Shown one piece after another: positions 8,454 to 33,595 of a stretch of 64,000 nt of DNA (position 1 is its first letter; each line of letters starts with the position of its first letter). Source of the stretch: Myxococcales bacterium (GTDB lineage: Bacteria > Myxococcota_A > Polyangia > Polyangiales > DASUME01); assembly GCA_047601445.1 (NCBI GenBank), contig JASGJH010000001.1, positions 4,160,001-4,224,000 on the forward strand, read 5' to 3'. The notes below the pieces were generated by a model that saw only the letters and a program-made list of their open reading frames with translations, did not search any database and was not told where the DNA came from. The translations under genes were made by a program, and so were the position numbers.

Positions 8454-9059
8454 TCATTCAGTTGCCGAGAGAAGCCCCACGAGCATTCTTGCTCCGCACA
8501 GCGTGCTGACCAATCCCGCCGAGACCACCAGCCGGCGGCGCACGACGCGTGCAGACGATGCTCGGAACAGGTAAGCCAGAGCGAGCGTAATCACGATCAT
8601 GCCGAGCACCGTACCGAGACCGAACAGCGCGAGGTAGAGCAGTGCATGTAGCGCGGAGCCGATCGTGGTGAGCGCCAGCAAGGCGACGGCCGCGGAGCCC
8701 GCCAGGCCGTGAATGCAGCCGAGCGCTACGGGACGAGCCGGATGAGGGGCGGTCTCGAGGCTTGGCTCGCGGGCACTCGGCAGAAGTTGTAACAGCCCCA
8801 GGAACAGCAGGCTCAGCGCCACCAAGGCTTCCACGCCGACCTCGAACTCGTGCGGCATACGAAGTTCGAAGCGCACCATCGCAAGGCCCACCGCGAGAAA
8901 GGTCAGCGTGTGTCCGAGGCCCCAGAACGCCGCCGTGCGCAAAGCCCCCGTGATGCTGGTACGCCCGACGACCACGCTTGCGATGGTCGCCACGTGATCC
9001 ACGTCAGCGGCGTGTCGAACTCCGAGCGCAAGGCCGAGTAGCAAAGGAGAAGCGAACAC
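8454..9059 (-). CDS. NiCoT/UreH-like nickel/cobalt permease, last gene of the cobalamin operon
   Basis: GVRHAADVDH, WGLGH and GCIHGLAGSAA motifs with about six hydrophobic helices; GTG 9059 with upstream GGAG, 44 bp after the cbiA stop. Confidence 0.75.
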   Translation of the reverse strand: MFASPLLLGLALGVRHAADVDHVATIASVVVGRTSITGALRTAAFWGLGHTLTFLAVGLAMVRFELRMPHEFEVGVEALVALSLLFLGLLQLLPSAREPSLETAPHPARPVALGCIHGLAGSAAVALLALTTIGSALHALLYLALFGLGTVLGMIVITLALAYLFRASSARVVRRRLVVSAGLVSTLCGARMLVGLLSATE

Positions 9060-9102
9060 GTGATGGGATCTCCGGGTCAGTTGTCCTACGGAATCGGCTT
9101 CG

Positions 9103-10470
9103 CTAGCAGCTTGCGCGAAGGCATGCCCCCACGAGGCCAGCAGCGACGTCGGGGTTCGATGCCCAGTGAGCATGGACGTAGCTCGCCAATACGGAACCCC
9201 GTCCGTAGCCTTCCGGGTTGATAGCCCCGTTGCGCCGCGTGCAGACCTGATAGCGTTGCGCCGGCACATCCGTGTCGAAGCGGGAATAGCGAAACTGGTG
9301 ACCACGGAAGCAGGTTCCGGCCCTGCCCAGAATGGTGTCCTCCCGCGTCTCTACCTCCACGTAGCCCAGGGCGGCGAGGCGCGGCTGCATGCAGGCGATG
9401 CCTGGTACGAGGCCCATCATGGGGTGACGCTGCCCATCGAGGGTGACGATCGCATCGCTCAAGAACATGAGCCCGCCGCACTCGGCGTAGATTGGCCTTC
9501 CACGCGCGGCAAACTCCTGAAGCGCAGCGCGCAGGTGTGCTTTGCGTGCCAGAGCCTGAGCATGGAGCTCGGGGTACCCGCCGCCGAAATAGAGGCCATC
9601 CACGTCCGGCAAGCCAGTGTCAGCCAATGGCGAGAAGTACACGAGCTCCGCGCCCAACGCCTCGAGAAGCCGCAGGTTGTATGGGTAGTAGAAGGAGAAC
9701 GCCTGGTCACGCGCGACGCCGATACGACAGCGCCCGAAGCGCACGAGGGGCGCACCCGGCCGAGCTCGGAGAGGAGCGGCAGCCCGCGCCAAAGAGAGCA
9801 CATCGTCGAGGTTGGTGTAGGCGAGCAAGCGCTCCGCCCAGACGTCGAGAACCTGCTCGCTCACCGCCTGGTCAGCCGTGTGTAGGCCGAGGTGGCGGGA
9901 AGGAAACTGCCCATCTTCTGCCTTCAGCAAGCTACCGACGAGCGGAGGATCGCCGCAGGCGCTAGCGAGTAGCGCGTGATGGCTAGCGCTACCCACGCGA
10001 TTGCACAGAACGCCAGCCACATGCACCTCGGGCGCGAACTGGCCAAAGCCCCGGGCGACTGCCGCCACCGAGCGCGCCATGCCGCTCGCGTCCACCACGA
10101 GCAGTACCGGCGCAGACAGCCAGCTCGCGATCTCTGCCGAGGAACCTTCGTTGCTGGTCGGGCCCGCCCCGTCGAACAGGCCCATCGCCCCCTCGATCAG
10201 CGCAATGTCGGCGCCGCGGGTCAGCTCGAGGAACGTCTCGACAACGGCGTCGCGCCCCATCATCCAGCCGTCCAGATTGTGGCTGGGCCTAGCCGTGGCG
10301 AGTCGATGGTAGGTCGGGTCGAGATAGTCAGGGCCGCATTTGAACAGCACGGTCTTCAGGCCTCGCTTGCGCAACGCGCGGGCGAGCGCGACCGTCATGG
10401 TGGTCTTGCCCACGCCGCTCGACACGCCTGCGATCAACAGGCGTGGGACGTGGACGGCCTCACTCTGCAT
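9103..10470 (-). CDS. cbiA: Cobyrinate a,c-diamide synthase
   Basis: SGVGKTT, FKCGPDYLD, IEGAMGLFDG, PSRHLGL, AFSFYY, YAECGG, SYVHAH. Confidence 0.95.
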   Translation of the reverse strand: MQSEAVHVPRLLIAGVSSGVGKTTMTVALARALRKRGLKTVLFKCGPDYLDPTYHRLATARPSHNLDGWMMGRDAVVETFLELTRGADIALIEGAMGLFDGAGPTSNEGSSAEIASWLSAPVLLVVDASGMARSVAAVARGFGQFAPEVHVAGVLCNRVGSASHHALLASACGDPPLVGSLLKAEDGQFPSRHLGLHTADQAVSEQVLDVWAERLLAYTNLDDVLSLARAAAPLRARPGAPLVRFGRCRIGVARDQAFSFYYPYNLRLLEALGAELVYFSPLADTGLPDVDGLYFGGGYPELHAQALARKAHLRAALQEFAARGRPIYAECGGLMFLSDAIVTLDGQRHPMMGLVPGIACMQPRLAALGYVEVETREDTILGRAGTCFRGHQFRYSRFDTDVPAQRYQVCTRRNGAINPEGYGRGSVLASYVHAHWASNPDVAAGLVGACLRASC

Positions 10471-11245
10471 CGGTGGCTCGCTCGCCCGTTACGGTGCCGC
10501 GCCGAAAGCGGTGGGTGAAGGTGGGGTCGTACAGGCGCGAGTTGGCGAAGTCTTTCGCGGAGAGGACGCGACCCACGATCACCATCGATTGTGAGCGCAA
10601 GCCGGCGTCTCGAGCCCGCTGCGCGATGTCAGCCAGCGTACCCATGACGACGCGCTGGTCCGGACAGCTGGCCTTGTGCACTACGGCCACAGGGCAGTCC
10701 TCGCCGTAGTGCGGCGAGAGCTCGCGTGCGACGTCGCGCAGCAAGTTGATGCTGAGGAACAGGCACATGGTCGCCCCGTGCGCCGCCAACCCGGCCAACT
10801 TCTCGCCTGCGGGCATGGGCGTGCGTCCTTCGGCACGGGTCAGGATCACGGTCTGGCTGAGCTCGGGTAGCGTGAGCTCCTTGCCTAGCGCCGCAGCGGC
10901 CGCCGTAAAAGAGGAGACGCCTGGCACGATCTCGAATTCGATGCCGAGCTCCTCGAGTTTGCGGATCTGCTCCGCCGTGGATCCGAAAATCGAGGGGTCT
11001 CCAGTGTGAACTCGGGCCACGTCCTGATTGCGCTCGTGTGCCTCCCTGATGATGGCGATGATCTCGTCGAGGGTCATCCCCGAGGAATCGAGCACCCTGG
11101 CATCGGCCCTCGCTCGCGCGACCGCCTCCTTCGGCACCAGAGAGCCAGTGTAGAGAACGACCGGGCAGCGCTCGATCAGCTCGGCTGCGCGAAGGGTAAG
11201 CAACTTGGGGTCGCCGGGGCCCGCTCCGATGATGTACACACGCAT
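10460..11245 (-). CDS. cbiF: Cobalt-precorrin-4 C11-methyltransferase (CobM/CbiF)
   Basis: MRVYIIGAGPGDP, LYTGSLV, RVHTGDPSIFG, ELTLPELSQTVILTR, SRLYDPTFTHRFR; ATG at 11245. Confidence 0.95.
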   Translation of the reverse strand: MRVYIIGAGPGDPKLLTLRAAELIERCPVVLYTGSLVPKEAVARARADARVLDSSGMTLDEIIAIIREAHERNQDVARVHTGDPSIFGSTAEQIRKLEELGIEFEIVPGVSSFTAAAAALGKELTLPELSQTVILTRAEGRTPMPAGEKLAGLAAHGATMCLFLSINLLRDVARELSPHYGEDCPVAVVHKASCPDQRVVMGTLADIAQRARDAGLRSQSMVIVGRVLSAKDFANSRLYDPTFTHRFRRGTVTGERATDAE

Positions 11246-11256
11246 TCGATCACTCC

Positions 11257-11670
11257 TCAAGTGCAGCGCAGCACGGTGTCGCGCACCACATCCCAAACCC
11301 GTTCGGGAGCTTCGACGAACCAGCGCGCTTCGATGGACTCGGGCAGGCCCTCGTCGTCGGCGTCGTCGTGTCCACATATCAACCGCCAGAGCCGATCGCT
11401 CACGGACCCGTTGCGCTGGATGAGCAAGCGCTCGGCGAGCAGCCTGGGAAGTGGCTCGCCTTCGAGTCCAAGCCTGAGCCAGGGCGCCTCGAGCTTCACT
11501 TCAGCGAGCGTCTCGAGCCGAACGTACGGCTGCGAGAGCGCGTCGATCACCGAGGGCTTCACCAGGCCGTACACCTCGAAGTCGACTGGTCGCTTGGTGT
11601 TGCCCACCAGGTAGTAGACGCCCTCAGTCTCGACAAGCATGGCGCCTGCCAATCGCGCAACTCTGGCCAT
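11257..11670 (-). CDS. Hypothetical protein embedded in the cobalamin operon
   Basis: 137 aa; start overlaps the cbiH stop at 11670 and stop lies 11 bp before the cbiF start; no motif recognised. Confidence 0.75.
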   Translation of the reverse strand: MARVARLAGAMLVETEGVYYLVGNTKRPVDFEVYGLVKPSVIDALSQPYVRLETLAEVKLEAPWLRLGLEGEPLPRLLAERLLIQRNGSVSDRLWRLICGHDDADDEGLPESIEARWFVEAPERVWDVVRDTVLRCT

Positions 11671-12512
11671 CAGGTGGTTCCTTGATCGAGCCCACCGTCG
11701 ACGACCAGCGAATGGGCGGGACGCTGCCCAGGTAGGGTCTCGCCCTGCCAGGTGTACTTGTTGGTGTATCCGCGCGGCGTGACCATGAAGCCTTCGAATA
11801 CGAAGCTGTTGCTGGAGCCGATCAGCACCGTGGTCAGCATACCGATCTCGAAGTCAAGGAAGCTGTCGAGGTCACTGAGCTCGGTGGTCTGCAGCTTGCG
11901 ATAGGCGCTCTTGACGAGCGCGACCGGGGTGCTGCCGGGACGATGGCGGCGGATGATCTGTTGCGCCTCGACGATCTGGCGCTGCCGTCTCCCGCTCGCC
12001 GGGTTGTAGAGGCCGATCACGAAGTCGGCGCTCGCCGCTGCCTCGATGCGCCGGGCGATCACGGACCAAGGGGTCAACAGGTCCGACAATGAGATCGAAC
12101 AGAAGTCGTGGCCGAGCGGCGCGCCCACCAAAGACGCGCACGAATTCAGCGCCGTCATGCCCGGGATGACACGTAGCTCGGGCGACTGGCCGCGCGTCCA
12201 GCCCACTTCCTGCAGGACCTGGAACACGAGGCTCGCCATGCCGTACACACCAGCATCGCCAGAGGAAATAATGGCCACCTTGGCGCCGCCGCGCGCGCGC
12301 TCGACGGCCGCCCGCGCACGTCCGATCTCCTCGGTCATCCCAGTACGCACGACTTCCTTCCCCTCGATCAACGGCTTGACCAGCTTGATGTACGTGCTGT
12401 AGCCAACGATGAGGTCGGCATCGGCGATGGCCCGCAGGGCTGCGGGCGTCGTGTGTTCTTCGGCGCCTGGTCCGATGCCCACCACGTACAGAACGCCTTG
12501 GCTCTCACTCAC
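11670..12512 (-). CDS. cbiH: Cobalt-precorrin-3 C17-methyltransferase (CobJ/CbiH)
   Basis: LYVVGIGPG, ISSGDAGVYGMA, GAPLGHDFCSISLSDLLTPW, LYNP, MVTPRGY; GTG 12512 after GAGGAGG. Confidence 0.95.
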   Translation of the reverse strand: MSESQGVLYVVGIGPGAEEHTTPAALRAIADADLIVGYSTYIKLVKPLIEGKEVVRTGMTEEIGRARAAVERARGGAKVAIISSGDAGVYGMASLVFQVLQEVGWTRGQSPELRVIPGMTALNSCASLVGAPLGHDFCSISLSDLLTPWSVIARRIEAAASADFVIGLYNPASGRRQRQIVEAQQIIRRHRPGSTPVALVKSAYRKLQTTELSDLDSFLDFEIGMLTTVLIGSSNSFVFEGFMVTPRGYTNKYTWQGETLPGQRPAHSLVVDGGLDQGTT

Positions 12513-13656
12513 GGCTCGCCTCCTCACGCTTCTGAAACGGCACGCGCGCTACCGCGACCGTCATACTGCGACCTGCTCCATCTTCGGTGTAAACCGTCTT
12601 CGGTACGATGACGCGCTCGGCCCCCGCCAGTAGGCGAGCCGCCGGCTCACAAACACCGCGCGTGCCGACATGACGCAACACCGTGGCCGACGGATTCTGG
12701 AGATCGGGCACGCTGTCCAGCTCTTCGGCCGTATAGAAGGTCAGCGGCCAACCGCGCTTCTCCGACAAGGCCAGGAGTCCGGGTTCGTCGCTCTTCTTGT
12801 CGATGCTCGCCATGGCTCTCACGCTCTTGGCAGACAGCCCCTGGTCCGCGAGCACCTTGTCGATGCCGCGCTCGATCAGGGCCAGCGGAGTATTGCGATC
12901 GCAGCCGAGCCCGAGCACGAGGCTCTTCGGCCGATAGACGACGCTGTTGTCGAAGTGCGCAGGATGGCTGCGCGCCACGTCCCGGTCGCTCGCGATCAGT
13001 AGGATCTCGAACGCGCCCGGGTCCACTCCCTCCAAGCCGAGCGCATACTCGACCCCAGGAGGCAGAGCCTTGTCCAGCGGCCAAAACGCGGCGTCGCCGG
13101 CCTCGTGCACGAACAGGACTCGGGCCTGATTGACCACCGCCGCGCAGCCACGGGTCACGTTGCGATCCATGTCGTCGAGGGTCCAACCAAGGTCGCGCCC
13201 GAGGATATCCACCGTGAGCGTGCCGATCGCGTCGCTGGCCGTCGTGATGACCGGCGTCGCTCCGAGTGCCTCCGCAACGCGTTCCGTGAAGGCGTTGCCT
13301 CGGCCCACGTGCCCCGAGAGCACGCAGATCGCAAAGCGCGCCGTGTCATCCACGCACAGCACGGCGGGATCGATCTTCTTGTTCGCCAGCAGCGGCGCGA
13401 CCATGCGGACCACCGCTCCGACGCTGATGACGTGCACGTGGCAGTCGTACGCCTTCCAGGTGTCGCGCAGCAGGGGCCCCATGGGTAGCGGCAGCGGCCG
13501 AGCTTCAGCGAGACTTGGTAGCTCGCGGGCGCCAGCCAAGAGCTTCTCGGATACGTAGACGTCGGCATCCGGCAATGCCGCGACCAACCGCGCAGCATGC
13601 TTCAACCCGTGGCGTGTGATCGCGTAGATCGCATAGGGTTTGCGCTGCTGAATCAT
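12505..13656 (-). CDS. cbiG: Cobalt-precorrin-5A hydrolase
   Basis: GAVVRMVAPLL..K..DPAV, LSGHVGRGN, VITTASD, LGLGC, KKSDEPGL, GVCEPAA. Confidence 0.93.
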   Translation of the reverse strand: MIQQRKPYAIYAITRHGLKHAARLVAALPDADVYVSEKLLAGARELPSLAEARPLPLPMGPLLRDTWKAYDCHVHVISVGAVVRMVAPLLANKKIDPAVLCVDDTARFAICVLSGHVGRGNAFTERVAEALGATPVITTASDAIGTLTVDILGRDLGWTLDDMDRNVTRGCAAVVNQARVLFVHEAGDAAFWPLDKALPPGVEYALGLEGVDPGAFEILLIASDRDVARSHPAHFDNSVVYRPKSLVLGLGCDRNTPLALIERGIDKVLADQGLSAKSVRAMASIDKKSDEPGLLALSEKRGWPLTFYTAEELDSVPDLQNPSATVLRHVGTRGVCEPAARLLAGAERVIVPKTVYTEDGAGRSMTVAVARVPFQKREEASRE

Positions 13657-14438
13657 GGCGCCTCCTCCACCGCAGCGGGCCGAGGCGTACTAGGCACATC
13701 GCCCATCAACACGCCCTTGCGCTCGTTGCGCGACACCACGATCATCGCGAAACAGTCCCCCCGCTGGTCCTGCACCTGGGTCAGGTCGCGCACGATGCGC
13801 TGCTCTTCCATGGTGGCCCGCGATACGTAGGCCGCCCGTTCGAGCAGCGACAACTTTCGCAAGGTCTCGATGATGTGTGGCAGTTCAGGTCCCACCTTCA
13901 TCAGCACCACGGTGTCGAAGCGTGCGAGCACCTCGGCAAGGTCGTCGAAGCCGCTCGTGCCGGAGAGGATCGCAACCCGCTCCTGACCATCGGCGAGTCC
14001 GATGCCCAGGGCCGCGGGCACCGCCATGATGGACGACACCCCTGGCACCACTTCGACAGGCAGCTCCGGGATGCGGGCGCGCAGCTCACGTCGCACGTAA
14101 AGAAACGTGCTGAAGGTGGAGGCATCGCCTTCACTGACGAAGGCCACCGACTTGCCCTCGCGCAGGCGCGCTTCGATCTGACTGCAAGCGCGCAGCACGG
14201 CCGGCCTCACGCGCTCCGGATCCTTGCTCATCGGAAACGTGAGAAGAAGCCGCTCCTGATCGGCGCGCGGCTCCAAGACGGGCTTCACGATGCGCAGCGC
14301 CATCGATTCGCCGAAGTCCGATCCGCGCGGCAGAGCGAGCACCGCCACCTCGCGCAGCACTTCGAGCGCGCGAAGCGTAAGCAAGTTGGTGGCACCGGGC
14401 CCAGCGCCGACACCGTAGAGGGTCCCTAGGTAGTTCAT
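13653..14438 (-). CDS. cbiL: Cobalt-precorrin-2 C20-methyltransferase (CobI/CbiL)
   Basis: LYGVGAGPG, LTFPM, EGDASTFSTF, VVPGVSS, VVLMKV; ATG 14438 in an ATGA overlap with cbiET. Confidence 0.92.
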   Translation of the reverse strand: MNYLGTLYGVGAGPGATNLLTLRALEVLREVAVLALPRGSDFGESMALRIVKPVLEPRADQERLLLTFPMSKDPERVRPAVLRACSQIEARLREGKSVAFVSEGDASTFSTFLYVRRELRARIPELPVEVVPGVSSIMAVPAALGIGLADGQERVAILSGTSGFDDLAEVLARFDTVVLMKVGPELPHIIETLRKLSLLERAAYVSRATMEEQRIVRDLTQVQDQRGDCFAMIVVSRNERKGVLMGDVPSTPRPAAVEEAP

Positions 14439-15667
14439 GGCCGCGTCACCGCGAAGATTTGAATAGGATTGAGGGCATCGAAGCGCATGTAGCGCGCCAG
14501 CGGCGCGGCTCTCGATACCTGCAGCATGGTGACCTCGGGGATCAGGTCGCGCTCGCGCAGGCACGCGTAACACTCATGACTGTTCTCGAGCGTGATCGCA
14601 TTCACAACCAGCCGGCCACCGGGCTTGAGTCGCTGAAGCGCGAGCTCGATGATGGCCCGCATACTGCCCTTGCTGCCGCCCACGAACACAGCGTCGGGCG
14701 CTGGCAGGTCTCCGAGCGCCTGCGGGGCGAGACCGCTGATCACGGTCATGTTGTCGGCACCGTGCGTCCTGGCGTTCTCGCGGCAGATCTCCACGCCTTC
14801 CGGGTCGACCTCTACGGCATAGACGTGGCCCGAGCTGGCCAGCAGTGCGGCTTCGATGCCCACCGAACCGGACCCGGCGCCCACGTCCCACACCACGCTG
14901 TCGCGACGCAGCTGCATGGCGCCGAGCGAGAGCAGCCGAACCTCGCGCTTGGTGATCAGCCCCTGCTTGGGCATACGCTTCTCGAAGGCGCTCTCGGGCA
15001 GATAGGGAATCAGTGCAGGCTCGCGAAAGTCGGGATCGCTGCGCTCGAGCAGCAGGACGTTGAGCGGGCCGACGTCGTCGCATTGCGCGAGTGATGAGAG
15101 GTCGAACGAGCGACAGCGCTCGCCCGGTCCGCACAGGTTCTCCAGCACGAACGCGGAAAAACCCGTCTCTCCGTAGGCGATCAGGTGCGCGGCGATGCGC
15201 TGAGGCGTGTTCTCTCGGTCGGTGAGGATGGCCACGCGCCGCTCGCCGCGGATGCGCGAGACGACCTGCTCCAGGGGACGCCCGTGCAGCGACAGGACCC
15301 GAGCGTGGTCGTAGGCGATGCCGGCGCGGGCAAATGCCCACTGCACGCTGGACGGCTGAGGGATCACCTCCACGTGCGCGCGTCCCACCGTCTCGATGAT
15401 CCGGGCTCCGATGCCGAAGAAGAGCGGGTCGCCCGAGGCGAGGACACAGACCGAGCGGTCCTCGGCCCACTGCGCGACGCGCGCGAGCACCGCGTCGAGC
15501 CCCCCCTTGATCGGGAGTCGCTCGCCGTGAAACTCGGGAAAGAAGGCCAGCTGGCGCTCTCCGCCAACGAGGACCTGCGCGCGCGCGATGGCGTCCATCG
15601 CTCGGCTGGTGAGGCCACGACAGCCGTCATCGCCGATCCCCACAATCGAAACGGCCCGCCTGCTCAT
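14435..15667 (-). CDS. cbiET: Bifunctional C5-methyltransferase / C15-methyltransferase-decarboxylase (CbiET/CobL)
   Basis: VLASGDPLFFGIG, SLHGR, ILTD; C-terminal ITKREVR, WDVGAGSGSV, VFVGG, GGRLVVNAITLE. Confidence 0.95.
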   Translation of the reverse strand: MSRRAVSIVGIGDDGCRGLTSRAMDAIARAQVLVGGERQLAFFPEFHGERLPIKGGLDAVLARVAQWAEDRSVCVLASGDPLFFGIGARIIETVGRAHVEVIPQPSSVQWAFARAGIAYDHARVLSLHGRPLEQVVSRIRGERRVAILTDRENTPQRIAAHLIAYGETGFSAFVLENLCGPGERCRSFDLSSLAQCDDVGPLNVLLLERSDPDFREPALIPYLPESAFEKRMPKQGLITKREVRLLSLGAMQLRRDSVVWDVGAGSGSVGIEAALLASSGHVYAVEVDPEGVEICRENARTHGADNMTVISGLAPQALGDLPAPDAVFVGGSKGSMRAIIELALQRLKPGGRLVVNAITLENSHECYACLRERDLIPEVTMLQVSRAAPLARYMRFDALNPIQIFAVTRP

Positions 15668-16317
15668 GTCGCACGCTCCGTCGAGAGCAGGAGCAACGCA
15701 TGCAGGATGGCGACTGCGATCGGACTTCCGCCCTTGCGCCCACGAGCCACGATGCTCGGCAGGGCCTCTACCGCGAGCACGGCCTCCTTGGACTCCGCCG
15801 CCGAGACGAAGCCCACGGGCACGCCTACGATCAACGCGGGTCTCGCCCCCTCTTCTTGCATCAGTCGGAGGAGCTCCAATAGCGCAGTCGGCGCATTGCC
15901 GACCGCGATCACCGCGCCATCGACGAGACCCATCCTGTGCGCCTTCCGCATCGCCTCGATCGCGCGCGTGCTGTTCTTGCGCTTCGCCTCGCTGATTACG
16001 TCTTCATCGGAGATGAAGCAGTGCACCTTGCAGCCGTAGCTAGCCAAGCGCTCCTCATTGAGGCCCACCTGGATCATGCGCACGTCTACCAACACCGGGC
16101 AGCCACGCTTGAGTGCTGCGATACCTGCATCGATGGCGTGCGGATGAACCCTGGTCAGGGTCGCGAACTCGAAGTCGGCGGTGGCATGGATCACGCGGCG
16201 CACCACCTGCCAGGCATCGGGTGTGAAGCCGTGCTCGCCGATCTCACGATCGATGATCGCGAAGCTACCGTCCTCTATGCTACGGCCAAGGGCCGTCATC
16301 TGTCTCATGTCGTTCAC
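15664..16317 (-). CDS. cbiC: Cobalt-precorrin-8 methylmutase (CobH/CbiC)
   Basis: SFAIID, RVIHATADF, GNAPTAL, GVPVGFVSAAESK, GRKGGS. Confidence 0.95.
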   Translation of the reverse strand: MNDMRQMTALGRSIEDGSFAIIDREIGEHGFTPDAWQVVRRVIHATADFEFATLTRVHPHAIDAGIAALKRGCPVLVDVRMIQVGLNEERLASYGCKVHCFISDEDVISEAKRKNSTRAIEAMRKAHRMGLVDGAVIAVGNAPTALLELLRLMQEEGARPALIVGVPVGFVSAAESKEAVLAVEALPSIVARGRKGGSPIAVAILHALLLLSTERAT

Positions 16318-17435
16318 GAAGGTCCTCCTGGGATCACGGCTTCCACGCGCGGGTGGCGCGCGAGCAGCGCACCACCGAAGTCGACCATGATGGCGGCGAT
16401 GGCCAGACTGCTGCCGGCGTGCTTCTCGGTGTGTTCGACCGCGCGCTGGCAGATCAACTCGGTCAGGTGCACGATGCCGCGCTCGGTGCAGATCTCCAGT
16501 ACGTGACGGGCGGTGTTCGCGGCGCCGATGCGCTCGCAGGTCGCGAAGTCGGCTCCAAGCTCTCGTGCAAACCCCGCCAGCAGCTCGAGGTTGACCTCCG
16601 AGCCGGCGACGTGGGTCTGCATCTTGCCGTTCGCCATCTTCGACAGCTTGCCGATCATGCCCACGATGTGTGCGCGCGGAAATCGCCGGCGGGCGGCGTG
16701 CTTGACGGCCACACCCACGAAATCGCCCATCTGCACGAAGGCCTCCTCGGGCAGGTGCGGGAAGAGCTTCATGGCATAGGCTTCGCTCTTGCCGCCCGTC
16801 GTGAGCACGACGTCGTCGATGCCTCGCTCCTTGGCCACGTCGATGGCCTGGACGACGCTCGCACGATAGGCGGCCGTCGAGTACGGCTTGACGATCCCGG
16901 AGGTGCCGAGGATCGAGATCCCTCCGAGCAAGCCCAGGCGAGCGTTGGTGGTCTGCTTCGCGAGCTCTTCTCCGCCAGGCACGCTGATGGTCACCACGGC
17001 GCCGGCATACTGGGAACCTCGCAACTCCTCTTCGACCATCTCCGCGATGTTGCGGCGCGGCACGGGATTGATGGCCGGGCCGCCCACCTCGAGACCGAGG
17101 CCCGGCTTGGTGACCGTGGCTACACCTTCGCCGCCGCGAATCTCCACGCCCGCCGTGTTGCGCAGGCTGACCTCCGCCACGATCCGTGCTCCGTGCGTGC
17201 AGTCCGGGTCGTCGCCGCCGTCCTTCACCACCGCGCAGCGAGCCAGATCTCCTTCACGTTCGGCGTGCGCCAGCGGAAAGATCACGCGCTGGCGATTCGG
17301 AAGGGTGCTCTCGATGCTCTCGAGCGGTGCCGCGCGAAGCAAGATGCGCGTGGCGGCCTTGGCGGCTGCAGCGGCGCAGGCCCCGGTGGTGAAACCGGTG
17401 CGCAACCCCTTCTTGTCGCGAGGCGGAACGGCCAT
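16314..17435 (-). CDS. cbiD: Cobalt-precorrin-5B C1-methyltransferase
   Basis: LRTGFTTGACAAAAAKAA, KDGGDDPDCTHG, AINPVPR, NARLGLLGGISILGTSGIV.P.S. Confidence 0.96.
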   Translation of the reverse strand: MAVPPRDKKGLRTGFTTGACAAAAAKAATRILLRAAPLESIESTLPNRQRVIFPLAHAEREGDLARCAVVKDGGDDPDCTHGARIVAEVSLRNTAGVEIRGGEGVATVTKPGLGLEVGGPAINPVPRRNIAEMVEEELRGSQYAGAVVTISVPGGEELAKQTTNARLGLLGGISILGTSGIVKPYSTAAYRASVVQAIDVAKERGIDDVVLTTGGKSEAYAMKLFPHLPEEAFVQMGDFVGVAVKHAARRRFPRAHIVGMIGKLSKMANGKMQTHVAGSEVNLELLAGFARELGADFATCERIGAANTARHVLEICTERGIVHLTELICQRAVEHTEKHAGSSLAIAAIMVDFGGALLARHPRVEAVIPGGPS

Positions 17436-18172
17436 CAGAGCAACGAGGCCTTTCTGACGGGGTGGTGGAAGAAGTTCTCGCTCTGAATCGGCACGTCCGC
17501 GAGCCCCCGCTGGTCCAGGAACGCGCGCGCGAAGGCAGGCAGTTCACCGTCGCCGGCCAGGTACACACGCGTGGGAGGGCCCTCGCTCGCGAGAGCGTCG
17601 AGGCAGCCTACGAACGCTGTCTGGCGCTCCGGGGTGCCGACTGCGGGCGAGCGGATATGACGTAGACGCAGGTCGCCGGGACACCGTGCCTCGACCTCCG
17701 TGGGCGATAGGAAGTACTCGCGTGAGGCCGCCCACCAAACGAGTGTGGTGTGCTGGAGAGCGGGCGCGAAGCCCGCGCCGCGAAGCAATCCGAGTGCGGC
17801 CGTGATGCCGGTGTCGCTGGCCACGACCCAGACACGTTCCTCGCTCTCCGCCAACACGGGAGCAAGCTTGCCCCAAGGCCCGCTGAATCGAACCTGCGTG
17901 CCCGCTTCGAGCGCGAGCATGGTCGCAGCCCCGAGTCCGCCCGCGACGGGGTAAACGGCGAGCTCGAATCGGCCCTGATCGGAGTCACTGGAAGTCAGCG
18001 AGTAGGCGCGTTTTCGGCGCTTTCCATCGGGCAGGTCGAGCCCCGTGTCCACGATGATGTACTGTCCTCCGCGAAATCCGAGCGGTGCACCATCGCTCAT
18101 CTCGAAACGCAAGAAGGCGCCGTCACCAACGGGCTGGCGCTCGAGCAGTCGTGCGGTGCGCACCGTGGCCAT
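17435..18172 (-). CDS. Ferredoxin-NADP reductase-like FAD/NAD(P)-binding oxidoreductase
   Basis: FRGGQYI, RAYSLTS (RxYS flavin motif), GPWG, DTGITA, YLAG, C-terminal ENFF; stop overlaps the cbiD start. Confidence 0.85.
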   Translation of the reverse strand: MATVRTARLLERQPVGDGAFLRFEMSDGAPLGFRGGQYIIVDTGLDLPDGKRRKRAYSLTSSDSDQGRFELAVYPVAGGLGAATMLALEAGTQVRFSGPWGKLAPVLAESEERVWVVASDTGITAALGLLRGAGFAPALQHTTLVWWAASREYFLSPTEVEARCPGDLRLRHIRSPAVGTPERQTAFVGCLDALASEGPPTRVYLAGDGELPAFARAFLDQRGLADVPIQSENFFHHPVRKASLL

Positions 18173-18175
18173 CGC

Positions 18176-18556
18176 TCAACCCTCCTCGGCGGGATAGAGC
18201 TCATGAACGAAGTCGTGCATCTCCTCGAGCTCCTGGCAGAAGCGCGCCATGCCCTCGACGTGGGCGTTCAATTCGAGCTCGACCTTCTTGGTGAGGACCA
18301 TGAGTGACGCGAGGTAGGGGCGCTCGGGTGCGCTGGCGGCGGTCTTCGCGACCTTCTCTTCCAGGCCGACCAGCGCGTGTTCGAAGCGTTCCCGCAGCGC
18401 TCGCAGTTCGCGTGTGCTCGCCAGCGTGGCGAGCGCCCCCGGTGCACTCGCGAGCGCGCCGAGCTCGGCTCGCTCGTGTTCACGTTCGCTCTCGTCGAAT
18501 CCACCGAGCACGTTCATGAGTCCGAGTCGCAGTGCTGCAATTTCGTGGCAAGCCAT
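18176..18556 (-). CDS. DUF3209-family protein
   Basis: N-terminus MACHEIAALRLGLMNVLG and C-terminal H..HE.YP match my recollection of DUF3209 from haloarchaeal cobalamin clusters. Confidence 0.75.
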   Translation of the reverse strand: MACHEIAALRLGLMNVLGGFDESEREHERAELGALASAPGALATLASTRELRALRERFEHALVGLEEKVAKTAASAPERPYLASLMVLTKKVELELNAHVEGMARFCQELEEMHDFVHELYPAEEG

Positions 18557-18570
18557 GTTTCGCGTTCCTT

Positions 18571-19770
18571 TCAGGCCATGATGTTGTCGACGAGTCGCGC
18601 CAGGATGCGGTCGCCTTGCAGGTGCTCGGCGATCAGCTCGGGCGTGTCCTGTTCGCGCACGCCGCGGTACCAGATGCCGTCCGGATACACGACCACCGCC
18701 GGGCCCTCTCCGCAGCGGCCCATGCAGCCCGTGCGCGTGACGCGGATGTCACGCTCGAGATGGACCTGCTTGAGCCGCCGTCGCAGTGCGGACAGGACCG
18801 CCATGCTGCCGCGCTCGACGCAGTCGCCGTTGCCACACACCAGCACGTGCTTTTTGAGCGGTCGGTGTGCATGCGCGTGGGGAGCGGCCTGGCCGTGGGT
18901 GACGCCGTGACGAACGCTGTAGAGCAGAGCCTTGAGTCCACCCACTCCGTCGGCAATCGCGCCGATGGGGGTACGGTACTGACACGTGTCGCACGGCAAT
19001 GGACTCGCGCCGGAGAGCGCGTTCTCGATGCGTTCCTCGAGCGCTCGTAGGACCTCGGGCTGTGCGCCGATGGGGTCACAGAGCGCGAAGTCGATCCACG
19101 GCGCCGCCTGTACGACTGCAGCGAGCTGTTCGCGCAGCTTGTCGAAGATCCGCCCCGCGAACAGCAGATAGGGTGCGACGACTACCCGCTTCGGGCGGCC
19201 CCGGATGGCCCGCTGTAGAGCGTCCTCGAAACTGGGCTTGGCGATGCCTGCGAAGCAAGGTTCGAAGGAGCTGATCGGCCTTCCTTCGGCGGTGAGGCGC
19301 GCGAGCTTGTACAGGTCGGCGTTGGCATCCGGATCACTCGCTCCGCGCCCGACCACCACCAGGGTCGTCGGTTCGGCCGGGCTGGTGAGCTGCGGCGCGA
19401 TGCGCTGCCAAAATGCGTTCAGCATGGCGGGATGCAGCCCGAGAGGCTCTGCCGCGACGAACTGGACCCGCGGGTGTTGCCGGCGTGCCCGGGACAGCGC
19501 CAGCGGGATGTCGTTCTTGACGTGCGGCGCGGTGAACAAGAGGACGGGCGCCACGACTACGCGTGAACTCATCCGCGCTGCGGCATGCAAAGCGGCGTCG
19601 AGAAGGGGCTGCGCGAGCTCGACGTACGCCGGGACAGCTCGCCTGCCGGTCGCCTCGCCATACCTCGCAACGAGCCCTTCGAACGCGAAGTTCGCGCCCG
19701 CTTCGCGGCTGCCGTGGCCGACGAGCACGACGACCGGCGCTTCCGATCCTGCGCACGCTAGATGGTCCAT
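18571..19770 (-). CDS. cbiX: Sirohydrochlorin cobaltochelatase CbiX fused to a thioredoxin-like [2Fe-2S] ferredoxin
   Basis: VGHGSR, YVELAQP, HVKNDIP; second domain VGRGASD; CDTCQY; His-rich HGVTHGQAAPHAHAH; C-terminal CGNGDC...CMGRCGEGP..VVYPDGIWY. Confidence 0.9.
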   Translation of the reverse strand: MDHLACAGSEAPVVVLVGHGSREAGANFAFEGLVARYGEATGRRAVPAYVELAQPLLDAALHAAARMSSRVVVAPVLLFTAPHVKNDIPLALSRARRQHPRVQFVAAEPLGLHPAMLNAFWQRIAPQLTSPAEPTTLVVVGRGASDPDANADLYKLARLTAEGRPISSFEPCFAGIAKPSFEDALQRAIRGRPKRVVVAPYLLFAGRIFDKLREQLAAVVQAAPWIDFALCDPIGAQPEVLRALEERIENALSGASPLPCDTCQYRTPIGAIADGVGGLKALLYSVRHGVTHGQAAPHAHAHRPLKKHVLVCGNGDCVERGSMAVLSALRRRLKQVHLERDIRVTRTGCMGRCGEGPAVVVYPDGIWYRGVREQDTPELIAEHLQGDRILARLVDNIMA

Positions 19771-19971
19771 GGCGGATCATCCAGGAGTCGGCTGGGTAGC
19801 CGCGGTCTTGATCACCCACCCGGCCCATCGTCTTTGGCTCGTCATCCTCGGGTCTCCCCGCTCGGGACCACGCGGACGAACCCATAGGGGTCACCGACCC
19901 CATGCAGAACGCGCCCCGAAGGACCCCGGCCGTTGCCTCCGTGTCCACGCGGAGTGCTGCCAACGCATCGA

Positions 19972-20143
19972 GGTAGGTCTCCTGGCTCGCAGGTTCGGGT
20001 TTAACCCTCGCTTTCGCCGCCTTCCCCGGTTCTCGACCGAGTGACCTTGACGAAAAGCTCCCTGCTTACAGTGGCGGGACCGCGCCGGTCTTGCACCGGC
20101 TTCCCTTTTACGCCCGCGCGTTGTCCGCGAAGGCACCCAGATA
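19972..20143 (-). ncRNA. Cobalamin riboswitch (B12 element)
   Basis: Minus strand: GGTGCC...AAAAGGGAAGCCGGTGCAAGACCGGCGCGGTCCCGCCACTGTAA...GGGAAGGC...GCGAGCCAGGAGACCTACC, directly upstream of the cbi operon. Confidence 0.95.
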
Positions 20144-20166
20144 CGGCCGCCATCGGCGGCAGGTGT

Positions 20167-20273: not shown

Positions 20274-22553
20274 CTAGGTTCCCGACTGCTGCGGCAGGGA
20301 TTCGTCGAGCGTGCCGCCCGTCTCCTTGGACCAGGCCGCGCCCCTCTGAATCGACCAGCCAGTGCTCAATCCGACCACGAAGGCCACCAGGGACACGGTC
20401 CCCGCAGCGAACAGCGTGTCACCGATCACGCGCATCCATCGCAACCTTTGCATGACGTCGCCCTGGAGGAACTCGGAGCTGCGCGCGTACCAGTATCCAT
20501 GCTCCACCGAGGCCCAGGTCTGCATCAACCCCACCGGCAGGAGGCTCAACACGATCATCGCCACGAGCCCGCCGTTGATGGCCCAGAAAGCAAAACTCAA
20601 GGTTCCCTCTCGCCAAACCGCATCCGGCTTCAGGGCACGGAAGCAAAACAGCATGAGTCCGATACCCAGCATCCCGTAGACGCCGAACAGCGCGGCGTGA
20701 CCGTGCACCGGAGTGGTGTTGAGTCCCTGCATGTAATAGAGCGCCACAGGCGGATTGATCATGAATCCGAACAGGCCCGCGCCCACGAGGTTCCAGAAGG
20801 CCACGGCCACGAAGAAATAGATCGGCCAGCGGTACTTGCGCACCCAGGGCCGCGTCTTGGTGAGCTTGAGGTTGTGCCAAGCTTCGAAGCCCACGAACAG
20901 CAGCGGCACCACTTCGAGGGCGCTGAAGACGGCCCCTAGCGCGAGAACCAGGGTGGGCGTCCCCGAGTAGTACAGATGGTGCAGGGTGCCGATGATTCCC
21001 CCCGAGAGGAAGATCGTCGAGGCCAACACGGTGGCCGTGCCGGCGGTCTTCAAGCTCACCAGGTGTAGCCGTGCGAACAGGAAGGCGATGACCACCGTGG
21101 CGAAGACCTCGAAGAACCCCTCGACCCACAAGTGTACGACCCACCAGCGCCAGTACTCGGCGACCGCCAGGTTCGTGCTCCGCCCGGCGCCGAGCGCCGC
21201 TCCGTAGAAGCCTGCGATGGCAAACGAGGAGACGAGAAAGAGCGTCAGGATGGTCCGCTGCTCGTCGCGACGCCGCAGCGCCGGCAAGATCGCGCGGATC
21301 AGCAGGGCGAGCCATAGAAACAGACCGACCAGCAGCGCGATCTGAAACGCTCGCCCGAGGTCGATGTACTCGTAGCCGCTGTGGCCGAAATAGAACCAGG
21401 CGTCGCCTGTGAGCCGCTGCTTCACGCTCAGCCATTGCCCTGCCATCGAGCCGACGACCACCACGAGCAGCGCTCCGAAGAGCACATTGACGCCAAGCCG
21501 TTGAAAGCGTGGCTCGGTGCCCACGGCGGGTGCCAAGTACAACCCTGCGGCCAGCCAGGCCGTGGCGATCCAGAAGATGCCGAGCTGAAGGTGCCACGTG
21601 CGCGTGATGACGTAGGGCAACATGGCGTCGATCGGCACGCCATAGAAGCCGCTGCCCTCCACGCCATAGTGCGCGGTGATCACCCCCAGCATGACCTGCA
21701 CCAGGATCAACGCCGCGACGGTCCAGAAGTACTTCACCACTGCGCGCTGCGAAGGCGTGGACGCGGACCCGAGCAAGGGATCATCGCCCGGGATGTCGCC
21801 GGGCGGCAGCTCTTCCTTATGCGTCGCATATCGGAAAGCCATGGCGCCGATGCCGGCCAGCAGCACGATGATGCTGACCCCGGTCCACACCAGGGCTTCT
21901 CCCGTGGGCCGATTGCCGATCAGGGGTTCGTGGGGCCAGTTGCTCGTGTATGTGATGTCCTCTCCAGGTCGCTTGGTGGCCGCCGCCCACGCACTCCAGA
22001 AAGTGAACGCAGCCAGTTGAGCGAGCCGCTGCGGGTCGGTCAGCGTATCCCGCGGAATCGCGTACTCCGCGCGCCCCTTCGTGAAGATGTCACGGTAGTG
22101 CTCGGCGTTGGCGCGATACGCGTGGGCGCGCACGGGGTCGATCGTCAAGGTTCGTGTTTCGGGATCGTAGTGATTCTCCCGAAAGCGGGCCTCCAGGCGA
22201 CGTTGCAATGCCCCTTGCTGCTCGGGACCCAGCCGTGCGTAGGGCTTGCCGAACTCGACTCGAGACCATTCATCGAGGATGAAGATGAGCTCTCGGTGAA
22301 GCCAATCCGCCGTCCAATCGGGTGCAACGTAGCTACCGTGGCCCCAAATGGAGCCGAGCTCCATTCCGCCCATGGCCTGCCAAACGTTCTGCCCTGCGCC
22401 GATGGCACCCGCCGGAACGACCTCCTCACCATCGGTCGTCACGACGCGTTCGGGGATCGGCGGCGCTTGTTGATAGATGCGCAGGCCCGTCCACCCCAAG
22501 ACGGCGAAAGACAACGTCATCACGGCGATGAAGCCGACCCAGACACGCGACAT
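20274..22553 (-). CDS. norZ: Quinol-dependent nitric oxide reductase (qNOR, NorZ-type)
   Basis: 759 aa; GSIWGHGSYVAPDWTADWLHRE, YTSNWP, RTWHLQ, WWVVHLWVEGFFE, GTLHHLY, HGHAALFGVYG. Confidence 0.95.
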   Translation of the reverse strand: MSRVWVGFIAVMTLSFAVLGWTGLRIYQQAPPIPERVVTTDGEEVVPAGAIGAGQNVWQAMGGMELGSIWGHGSYVAPDWTADWLHRELIFILDEWSRVEFGKPYARLGPEQQGALQRRLEARFRENHYDPETRTLTIDPVRAHAYRANAEHYRDIFTKGRAEYAIPRDTLTDPQRLAQLAAFTFWSAWAAATKRPGEDITYTSNWPHEPLIGNRPTGEALVWTGVSIIVLLAGIGAMAFRYATHKEELPPGDIPGDDPLLGSASTPSQRAVVKYFWTVAALILVQVMLGVITAHYGVEGSGFYGVPIDAMLPYVITRTWHLQLGIFWIATAWLAAGLYLAPAVGTEPRFQRLGVNVLFGALLVVVVGSMAGQWLSVKQRLTGDAWFYFGHSGYEYIDLGRAFQIALLVGLFLWLALLIRAILPALRRRDEQRTILTLFLVSSFAIAGFYGAALGAGRSTNLAVAEYWRWWVVHLWVEGFFEVFATVVIAFLFARLHLVSLKTAGTATVLASTIFLSGGIIGTLHHLYYSGTPTLVLALGAVFSALEVVPLLFVGFEAWHNLKLTKTRPWVRKYRWPIYFFVAVAFWNLVGAGLFGFMINPPVALYYMQGLNTTPVHGHAALFGVYGMLGIGLMLFCFRALKPDAVWREGTLSFAFWAINGGLVAMIVLSLLPVGLMQTWASVEHGYWYARSSEFLQGDVMQRLRWMRVIGDTLFAAGTVSLVAFVVGLSTGWSIQRGAAWSKETGGTLDESLPQQSGT

Positions 22554-23290: not shown

Positions 23291-26200
23291 ATGCAGAGAA
23301 TTCCGGCTTCGTCGGGACTGATTCGCGTCGTACATGTGAAGCTCGCATTGGCCGCCTGCTTGCTCTTGGGCAGCGCGTGCAGCGGGGACCCCGACGCGAA
23401 GGGGGACGCCGATCCCGATGGTGGACCCAGCTCGGACTCGGGCCTACACGGAGACGGAGACGGAGGGGTCATCGACCCGGCCCTGTGTGGCAACCTGAAG
23501 CTCGACCCAGCCGAGAGGTGCGACGACGGTAACCGCGCGCCCGCCGATGGCTGCAGCGCGCTCTGCCAGATCGAACCCAATGGCTGGCAGTGTCCGGTCG
23601 TGGGCCAGGCCTGTGAGTTGTGCGGCAATGGCACGATCGACGCGAACGAGAAATGCGACGACGGCAACCGGACCAGCGGCGACGGCTGTCGGGCCGATTG
23701 CTACGAGGTCGAGGAGCACTTCCAGTGCTTCGACGGCGCCTGTGAGCACTGCGGCAATGGAGTCCGCGAAACCCACGAGGCCTGCGACGACGGCAACAAC
23801 CAGTCGGACGACGGCTGCACCTTCAACTGCCTCGCGGTCGAGGCCGGCTGGGTCTGCGATCAGAGCGGTGGCGGCTGCACGATCTGCGGCGACGGGTTCA
23901 TCGACCCCAATCTCGAAGAGTGTGACGACGGCAACGGGTTGAACGACGACGGCTGCAGCAACGAATGCACCAAGGAACCGGGCGCCGTGTGTCTGATCAC
24001 GGGCGCGGTCTGCTCGGTGTGCGGCAACGGCGTGATCGAGGCGGTGTCGATCAACGACCAAGGTACCGCCACCACGAGCGACGACACCTACGAGATCGAA
24101 GGGTGCGACGACGGCAACCGCAATGACGGCGATGGCTGCTCGGCCGGCTGCGGGGTGGAAGAGGGTTTCATCTGCAAGGTCCCCGGCTTTCCCTGCTACA
24201 AGTGCGGCGACGGCGTGGTGGCCGCAGGCATCGAGGCCTGCGACGATGGCAACACCAAGAGCAGCGACGGCTGCCGTGCCGACTGCTACCTCGTCGAGCC
24301 GTACTACAGCTGCACGACGCCGGGCGCGCTGTGCGAGAAGTGCGGCGACGGCAACGTCGGCCCGGGCGAGACCTGCGACGACGGCAAGACTCCGCCCACG
24401 GCGGGCGATGGCTGTGACGTGCTCTGTCAAATCGAGTCCGGGTGGTCCTGCGACGGCGGCACCTGCCTCATGTGCGGCAACGGCGTCAAGGACGCGGGCG
24501 AAGCCTGCGACGACCGCAACAGCAAGGATGGCGACGGCTGCAGCGCGGACTGCAAGAGCGTGGAAGCCGGCTTCAACTGCTTTTTCCCTGGCTTTGCCTG
24601 CGCCAAGTGCGGCGACGGAAAGCTTCAGCCTGGCGAGGAGTGCGATGAGGGCACGTTCACGGATGGCGTGGGCTGCACGGCCCAGTGCCAGAACCAGAAC
24701 GGCTATGTGTGCGTCGTGCCGAACACCAAGTGCACGCTGTGCGGTGACGGCACCAAGGAAGGCCTCGAAGGCTGCGACGACAAGAACGGCGCGAATGGCG
24801 ACGGCTGCAGCTCCCAGTGTCAGGTGGAACCCGGCTACGTCTGCTCCGGGACGCAGTGCTTCGCGGGCGCTTGCGGTGACGCCGTGCGCGCCGGTGCCGA
24901 GGAGTGCGACGACGGCAACCTGAAGGCGGGTGACGGCTGCAATTTCGTGTGCAAGCTCGAGAGCGGCTGGTCCTGCGAAGGCAGCAAGGGCTGCCACCGC
25001 GTAGTCTGCGGCGACAAGATCATCGAGGGCGACGAGGAGTGCGAGGACAACGACGCTCCGCCCGCGTCCAACGACGGCTGCAGCGCGACCTGCCAGCTCG
25101 AGATCGGCTACAAGTGTCCGACGCCCGGCGCTGCATGCGTGACGACCACCTGCAACGACAAGCTCGTCGAAGGCGCCGAGCAGTGCGATGACGGCAACAC
25201 CAACGTGGGCGACGGCTGCGGCGCCACCTGTCAGCTCGAGTCGGGCTACTACTGCCCCACCCCGGGTTCGGCGTGCAAGCCCACCGTCTGCGGCGACAAG
25301 GCGATCCAGGGCCTCGAAGCTTGCGACGACGGCAACAAGGTCGCCGGCGACGGCTGCAGCGATACCTGCACGGTGGAGAAGTTCTACCACTGCAGCACGC
25401 CCGCTGCTGGTCAGGCGAGCGACTGCAAGCCGCTCTTCGAGTTCGTGGCCATCCGCAGCTTCAACATCCAGAACGTCTATCCGGAAGGCCTGGTGTACGA
25501 CCCGATCCGGCGCTCCTTCGGCGGCTTCAAGCAGTCCGCCAGCGCCAACAAGGATCCCATCGAGCTGTGCATGGACGGCACCATCATCGACCCCAACGAC
25601 ACCGCGTCGGGCTCGCAATACGGCACCATCTACCGTCCGGACGGGACGATGGAGCAGGTCGCCCAGAGCTACAAGCAGGTGCCGCGTCCCGTGACCTCCG
25701 GGACACTCCTGGAGGGTGCCTACGATCCCTTCACCGGGCACTACTTGTACCTGAGCACGAACGGGTCCACCGTGACACTGACGGATGTGCCCCTCTGCAC
25801 CACGGGCCTCTCCTGCCCGGCCACTTACTTCGACCCCACAGCGGCCGACGCTGCCAGCAAGCTGCCCAAGTATCAGGCCACGCTGAACGGAGTCACGGAC
25901 GCCGCAGGGCTCACCGTGGGTGAGGACGGCGACCTGTACGTCACCGACAGCAGCCTGGAAAAGATCGTGGTGTTCGCGCGTCGCCGGGATGCCAAGCAAA
26001 GCATCGTGGTGCCCAACTGCGTGAGCGCGCCCGAGGCAAACTGCACGAGCTTTGCGACCTCGTCGGGCTACAGCTTCGCGGACGCTGCCACCGACGTGCT
26101 CAAGAGCATCTTCACCGTGCCCGGTGTCGACATGGTGGGCACGTTCCACGGCGCCTCGGACGCCTCCTATCCGAAGGACCTCTACTTCAACTTCTATCAG

Positions 26201-30914: not shown

Positions 30915-33595
<2,681 letters not shown>

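Follow-up and report, generated by a model that had tools for sequence, protein, structure and literature searches.

In corrin ring synthesis, CbiD makes cobalt-precorrin-6A, which CbiJ reduces with NADH before CbiT/E act on it (PMC7242693). CobK, as described in PMC4663756, consists of two Rossmann domains and transfers hydride directly from NADPH; C18 is protonated and hydride goes to C19, with no residue positioned to give the proton according to that description. Absence of cbiJ from B12 pathways that are complete in other respects has been noted since at least 2004, in delta-proteobacteria (PMC545781), and also in Methylocaldum (PMC10974252) and Desulforhopalus (PMC12908670), and the gap is still credited to unnamed "alternative reductases" (PMC12908670, PMC10974252, PMC8305020). 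For haloarchaea, four cluster genes lacking an assignment, a ferredoxin and DUF3209 included, have been proposed for two gaps, one of them EC 1.3.1.106 (PMC8305020 supplement). In Leptospira, LB_163 is tabulated as a "flavodoxin reductase" of the cobI/III cluster, a generic name to which Table 2 attaches no role in the CbiJ gap (PMC4758666).

Here we describe a relative of LB_163, an ORF of 245 aa (17435..18172, minus strand; PF00970, E 1e-11) that encodes an FNR-fold flavoprotein specific to B12 operons. We suggest, with about even confidence and from its genomic context, that it is a dedicated FAD enzyme of the FNR fold supplying cobalt-precorrin-6A reduction beside CbiD, possibly fed by ferredoxin. 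We found no paper giving this family the CbiJ role (subscription papers and some supplements lay outside the search); the gene is known in print under its generic name and, as far as that search reached, the assignment to the CbiJ step is new.

The operon and its source genome

Within the window (the whole stretch of 64,000 nucleotides that was analysed), Pfam and NCBIfam profiles resolve a cobalt-early operon, on the minus strand and led by a cobalamin riboswitch (19955..20155; Rfam RF00174, 107.6 bits). The first gene, cbiX (18571..19770; PF01903 and PF01257, with NF041612 below cut-off), encodes a cobaltochelatase fused to a C-terminal thioredoxin-like [2Fe-2S] ferredoxin, and is followed by a DUF3209 gene (18176..18556; PF11483, E 7e-42), the ORF, cbiD (16314..17435; TIGR00312 over cut-off) and cbiC, for precorrin-8X methylmutase (15664..16317; PF02570). 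Then come cbiET, for the bifunctional C5/C15 methyltransferase that acts after the reduction step (14435..15667; TIGR02467 and TIGR02469 over cut-off), cbiL, for the C20 methyltransferase (13653..14435; TIGR01467 over cut-off), cbiG, for cobalt-precorrin-5A hydrolase (12505..13656; PF11760, PF11761, PF01890), and cbiH, for the C17 methyltransferase (11670..12527; TIGR01466 over cut-off). A conserved ORF of 137 aa (11257..11670), with no match in Pfam or NCBIfam and no usable Atlas match, separates cbiH from cbiF, for the C11 methyltransferase (10460..11260, start codon provisional; TIGR01465 over cut-off); cbiA (9103..10470; NF002204 and TIGR00379 over cut-off) and a HupE/NicO-like membrane protein, probably for cobalt uptake (8454..9104, start provisional; PF13795), close the series. 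The ORF starts 3 bases past the DUF3209 stop, and its own stop overlaps the cbiD ATG as TGATG, in agreement with the coupling to cbiD claimed in an earlier note on this DNA. The same note had listed cbiX, L, H, F, G, D, ET, C and A without CbiJ, and the profiles bear this out; the DUF3209 gene, the 137-aa ORF, the HupE/NicO-like transporter and the riboswitch go beyond it. The 137-aa ORF lies between cbiH and cbiF in 63 of the 80 loci surveyed (the best 80 of 128 relatives of the reductase) and has a homologue fused to CbiH in Leptospira (L082); it is possibly a CbiH accessory domain. Directly upstream of the riboswitch, the window holds a quinol-type nitric oxide reductase with NorB/COX1 domains (20274-22553, minus strand), and farther on a 1535-aa protein with many Cys-rich "CGDG...EQCDDGN" repeats (23291-27898) and, at 30915-32621, one of 568 aa whose GAT repeat is collagen-like.

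The source genome is a single contig of 9.5 Mb, 98.68% complete. The whole-genome profile search that the earlier note had proposed returned no CbiJ/CobK, the best PF02571 match reaching 12.2 bits against a cut-off of 28.6; as a control, the same search at E 0.001 found CbiJ in 2 of 14 genomes. A local profile of 20 CbiJ sequences gave a sole, weak match in the source genome, to the C-terminal part of CbiD, and neither search revealed a hidden cbiJ. As to a possible CbiJ-like domain in CbiD, the CbiJ profile in HHalign matched this part of CbiD (16317-16889, residues ~185-270) with P=90.6% over 86 columns, LTTG-x-K being present in both, and scored <3% against each of 12 other operon families; CobK was absent among the fold matches listed for a model of the CbiD C-terminal domain.

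Homologues of cobO, cbiZ, cobU, cobQ, cbiB, cobT and bluB are found elsewhere in the genome (cobO at ~3.5 Mb from the ORF), as are a uroporphyrinogen methyltransferase and two SirC-like genes. A Thermus CobS query had no match in the source genome, which may reflect divergence, given that cobT, cobU, cbiB and cobQ are there. Precorrin-2 dehydrogenase (SirC/CysG-N) is over cut-off in 61 of 76 core carriers of the reductase, and twice in the source genome. Since it is present in most carriers, ring reduction is the only textbook redox step of the ring pathway that is left without a gene.

A reductase family with an altered nucleotide site

The model of the ORF (pLDDT 93) has the two-domain FNR fold, an N-terminal FAD-binding beta-barrel followed by an alpha/beta domain. 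In fold it comes nearest to oxygenase reductases and bacterial Fpr (Z 20-21, rmsd ~3.3 A over ~220 residues, ~20% identity; for 4WQM, Z 21.0 and rmsd 3.3 over 216 aligned). The family is well defined, with 168 clusters at 50% identity scoring below E 1e-30, and is monophyletic with respect to ordinary FNR-fold proteins in two trees (145/145 rows, support 0.97, 7 outgroups; 73/73 rows, support 0.99, 13 outgroups).

The FAD motif RxYS is intact and kept as RAYS (R in 329 and S in 321 of 334 aligned rows). For the NAD(P) domain, motifs were counted on 128 family representatives. The GxGxxP loop is replaced by TDTGITA: of 124 representatives, 110 have Asp for the first Gly and none has the Pro. 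Cys of the CG motif occurs in 14 of 121, and its place is taken by G-D-G (G 120, D 112 and G 116 of 121), whereas ordinary FNR-fold proteins aligned alongside keep CG. At position 147, after the second NAD-domain strand, a bulky residue stands where ordinary members have Gly. The late Glu and aromatic are retained (E232 in 114, F234 in 110 and F235 in 115 of 120) within a conserved E-x-FF-N/H, beyond which the chain runs on. PF00175 had no match in 68 members at E 0.1. The atypical loops reported earlier for the ORF, ASDTGITA and YLAG, are thus real (residues 118-125 and 204-207), and changes of the NAD(P) site run through the whole family. Because the site is altered in a conserved way, we regard the loop as a selected family trait rather than decay, and NAD(P)H use is not to be assumed. 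The earlier description as a flavin/NAD(P) oxidoreductase holds for the FNR fold and the FAD motif; its NAD(P) part is unproven. A canonical NAD(P)H-dependent FNR/Fpr would bind FAD, oxidise NAD(P)H and reduce ferredoxin or flavodoxin.

Gene order, CbiD fusions and distribution against CbiJ

We surveyed the loci of the best 80 of 128 relatives in a genome collection. Because 79 of these 80 lie in cbi operons, the linkage is not chance. The sole exception (L054) belongs to a genome that keeps a contiguous cbiX-ferredoxin/DUF3209/cbiD block on another contig, so there the reductase gene has moved and been kept. Carriers belong to Myxococcota, Nitrospirota, Elusimicrobiota, Planctomycetota, Acidobacteriota and other phyla, and the operon largely spreads as one mobile unit common to most of them. 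On its upstream side the reductase adjoins DUF3209 in 73 of the 80 loci and cbiX in 6, the remaining 1 having a contig end there, and the next recognised B12 gene after the reductase is cbiD in 72, cbiC in 5 and none in 3. Small genes sometimes stand between reductase and cbiD, HutX-like in Nitrospira and PduO-type in Binataceae. The HutX/ChuX-like gene (haem-carrier fold), a possible tetrapyrrole carrier, directly follows the reductase in Nitrospira and in one Elusimicrobia locus (L019:10723-11100; L013:10732-11124).

Two other architectures were observed. In all four other CbiD genomes of the own-phylum sample, divergent and shortened members (~210-240 aa; L233:6550-7188, L234:14666-15292, L125:17974-18696, L130:9239-9874) stand behind cbiX-ferredoxin/DUF3209 and apart from cbiD. 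This clade keeps AGDG and E-x-F, has D120 in 1 of 4, and adjoins a uroporphyrinogen methyltransferase-like gene; a SirC match was found in 0 of its 4 genomes. In five Elusimicrobia loci, the reductase lies directly behind a CbiX without ferredoxin; these genomes have DUF3209 in 0 of 5, and ferredoxin-like matches in them are weak and unlinked. Altogether, the reductase is without a linked ferredoxin in 6 of the best 80 of 128 loci, one of them in a genome flagged unpublished (G053, loci L057 and L094) that is the sole Methylococcales carrier, the centre of the Methylococcales sample and one row in each of the counts of 78, 87, 124, 12 and 76 used here. Two metagenome loci have the same operon without the reductase, with relocation possible.

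The best evidence linking the reductase to the CbiD step is its fusion with CbiD. Single reductase-CbiD chains number eight among the best 150 representatives, with three further clusters from a search for longer proteins, and one family member is fused to CbiG_C. CbiD is attached in 14 of the 265 stored family proteins; DUF3209, ferredoxin and CbiX are attached in none, although DUF3209 lies just as near on the upstream side. Parsimony on a tree of 152 sequences, most of whose support values near the fusions are modest, counts 8 changes for the 11 distinct fusions; in two of the fusion clusters the 2-3 members come from different sources. The fusions are known from protein sequences alone, and a metagenome scan for their DNA context gave 23 loci, none fused. 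The TGATG overlap makes such a fusion mechanically easy.

CbiJ was found in none of 87 carrier genomes, that is 78 genomes from the 80 loci (two loci being from assemblies already included), the source genome and 8 further carriers; most are metagenome assemblies, and 8 are titled complete genomes. Since carriers share a mobile operon, they are not independent, and 0/87 stands for few independent events. As background, we took samples of 401 own-phylum, 151 Methylococcales and 201 Nitrospirota genomes, of which 124 have CbiD when the source genome is set aside (in the own-phylum sample, CbiD occurs in only 5 of 401). CbiJ is present in 25 of the 124, the reductase family in 12, both in none and neither in 87; the expected overlap is 2.4 (Fisher p=0.12, or 0.20 without 4 seed genomes). 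Divergent members in two genomes (G414 and G426) escaped a first profile at E 1e-15 and were recovered only by reading loci. With a broadened profile, on which 10 held-out family members scored 135-220, and a motif check, the 25 genomes with CbiD and CbiJ yielded no family member, all matches being <=85 bits and without the family signature. For 64 of the 87 genomes with neither, reading the loci up to ~10 kb either side of cbiD revealed no family member; the rest were scored with the E 1e-15 profile. In 301 Elusimicrobiota genomes there were 2 true family members and 0 CbiJ, too few to inform; three weaker matches there were ordinary FNRs.

Mutual exclusion of the reductase and CbiJ is compatible with replacement, without being proof. 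The phylogenetic profile shows the absence of co-occurrence expected from the earlier note, and yet it is weak evidence, because lack of cbiJ is usual in these lineages with or without the reductase. No family member is found in 87 of the 99 CbiJ-less CbiD genomes, and the 12 others have one. A Thermus megaplasmid, for instance, has CbiX-ferredoxin, DUF3209 and CbiD with neither reductase nor CbiJ there. In CbiJ-less, reductase-less operons, a conserved protein of ~420 aa with a weak BPL_N match follows cbiH (L175:3423-4685 and 16 other Nitrospirota loci). DUF3209 goes together with the CbiX-ferredoxin fusion and is present also in Thermus and Haloferax, without CbiJ over cut-off; it is a second candidate for the CbiJ gap.

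Proposed role, alternatives and known systems

In the role that we propose, the reductase would cover the CbiJ step, the two-electron reduction of the C18-C19 double bond of cobalt-precorrin-6A, next to CbiD, the maker of this labile compound. A hydride equivalent would pass from reduced FAD to C19, and the C18 proton might be given by the family-specific D120 or D208. Electrons could be supplied by NAD(P)H, in an unusual binding mode, or singly by the CbiX-fused [2Fe-2S] ferredoxin. Several answers to the missing CbiJ would then exist, the reductase being one and not the general one. The proposal starts from the fold, the intact FAD motif, confinement to cbi operons, carriers free of CbiJ, repeated fusion with CbiD and the altered pyridine-nucleotide site. 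Against it, the neighbour kept most regularly is the cbiX-ferredoxin/DUF3209 block on the upstream side, and the four divergent members are apart from cbiD, behind that block. FNR-fold enzymes also usually hand electrons to carriers and do not reduce a macrocycle. Moreover, a deletion has removed the gene from L. santarosai and L. alstoni, which are scored as having the other ring genes, in a paper part of which ascribes losses in the tested strains to subculture with B12 (PMC4758666); these deletions and the two metagenome operons without the gene count against an essential role. The earlier inference of a non-orthologous CbiJ replacement thus gains from the lack of CbiJ, the lack of co-occurrence and the CbiD fusions, and loses from the many CbiJ-less CbiD genomes that have no reductase.

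The earlier note had offered as an alternative that the reductase gives electrons to the CbiX-fused ferredoxin. On this reading they would pass from NAD(P)H by way of FAD to [2Fe-2S], and the reduced ferredoxin would serve early steps (cobalt redox state, or reduction of factor-level intermediates before CbiH) or reduce cobalt-precorrin-6A indirectly, perhaps with DUF3209. We consider this possible but doubtful. Among the loci of the best 80 of 128 relatives, wherever an upstream gene exists (79 of 79), and likewise in 4 of 4 divergent operons, the reductase stands behind the cbiX(-ferredoxin/DUF3209) block, as it does in every architecture observed; its nearest folds are ferredoxin-linked reductases; a free ferredoxin accompanies 20 of 24 CbiJ-less Methylococcales loci versus 2 of 7 with CbiJ; and ferredoxin and DUF3209 stand together on the haloarchaeal list (PMC8305020 supplement). 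However, the family-wide loss of NAD(P) motifs is unexpected in an enzyme that takes electrons from NAD(P)H, fusions go to CbiD and in none of the 265 proteins to ferredoxin or CbiX, the reductase is kept in the six loci without linked ferredoxin, and ferredoxin persists without it in Thermus and Methylococcales. The two readings may be non-exclusive, and they merge if ferredoxin feeds the flavin, which fits the altered NAD(P) site, the Methylococcales ferredoxin counts and the haloarchaeal candidates. In its most specific form, to which we give a rather low probability, the enzyme would be a ferredoxin:cobalt-precorrin-6A oxidoreductase: the NADP site would have turned into a tetrapyrrole site, two single electrons would arrive from the CbiX-fused [2Fe-2S] ferredoxin, FAD would give the hydride and D120 or D208 would protonate C18. 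If this is true, a single enzyme accounts at once for the missing CbiJ, the fusions with CbiD and the link to ferredoxin, and points to ferredoxin-based reduction in other CbiJ-less B12 producers.

It is quite improbable, in our estimate, that the reductase is instead a one-electron cobalt reductase, keeping the CbiD substrate or neighbouring intermediates as Co(II) in air-exposed cells while something else reduces C18-C19. This would account for the CbiD fusions and for the gene being losable, and many named hosts are aerobes. An FNR-fold siderophore reductase described in PMC11965169 reduces a metal chelate without hydride transfer and is a precedent. A cobalt reductase nevertheless predicts some co-occurrence with CbiJ, and there is none in the 87 and 25 genomes; siderophore reductases are no closer to it in fold than ordinary FNRs are (Z 18.7 versus 21.0). 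Less probable still is a function late in the pathway, as a corrin reductase (Co(III)/Co(II) to Co(II)/Co(I)) feeding adenosylation, for which the Fpr/flavodoxin and CobR systems are models. A PduO-type adenosyltransferase gene (PF01923) does lie between reductase and cbiD in one locus (L020), with an ORF of the same size at that place in two others (L052, L069), but cobO is far away in the source genome, and the long members scanned carry CbiD or CbiG_C and no adenosyltransferase. Replacement of precorrin-2 dehydrogenase, making sirohydrochlorin for CbiX, is very improbable: the reductase always adjoins the cbiX block, and the four divergent members match this idea in their neighbour and their lack of SirC, but the SirC/CysG-N genes of most core carriers reject it for the core family, a rejection limited to that family and not extending to the divergent clade.

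Under the proposed role, the reductase is one named, clonable candidate for the CbiJ gap, and its natural CbiD fusions are ready test proteins. If the role is true, Nitrospira, myxobacteria, Leptospira and the other carriers have a complete ring pathway, metagenomes scored as having an "incomplete pathway" are corrected, and corrin ring reduction gains a flavin route. The gap would be filled only in part, in 12 of the 99 CbiJ-less CbiD genomes in our sample.

Compared with siderophore-interacting proteins, in which the FNR fold is repurposed for a metal chelate, the family may have in common acidic residues in the nucleotide loops, and gives weak PF08021 matches in 13 of 68 members. It has no PF04954 C-terminal domain (0/68 at E 0.1), and the structural match ranks 50 (Z 18.7), below ordinary FNRs; kinship beyond the common fold is unsupported. 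With ferredoxin(flavodoxin)-NADP and oxygenase reductases (E. coli Fpr 1FDR, BenC 1KRH, T4moF 4WQM) it has in common the FNR fold, RxYS and the late Glu and aromatic, at ~20% identity; it differs from them in TDTGITA for GxGxxP, xGDG for CG, a bulky residue for Gly and a longer C-terminal end, in having no PF00175 match (68 members), and in forming its own clade, confined to cbi operons. Relative to CbiJ/CobK (EC 1.3.1.106 / 1.3.1.54), the proposed reaction and the slot after CbiD would be the same, but the proteins are not homologous: the profile comparison gives a probability of 0.07%, there is no PF02571 homology, and the model has the FNR fold, not the flavin-free double Rossmann fold of CbiJ/CobK. 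Leptospira LB_163 is a member of the same family at 34% identity, and in L. interrogans too the order is cbiX-ferredoxin, DUF3209, reductase, cbiD.
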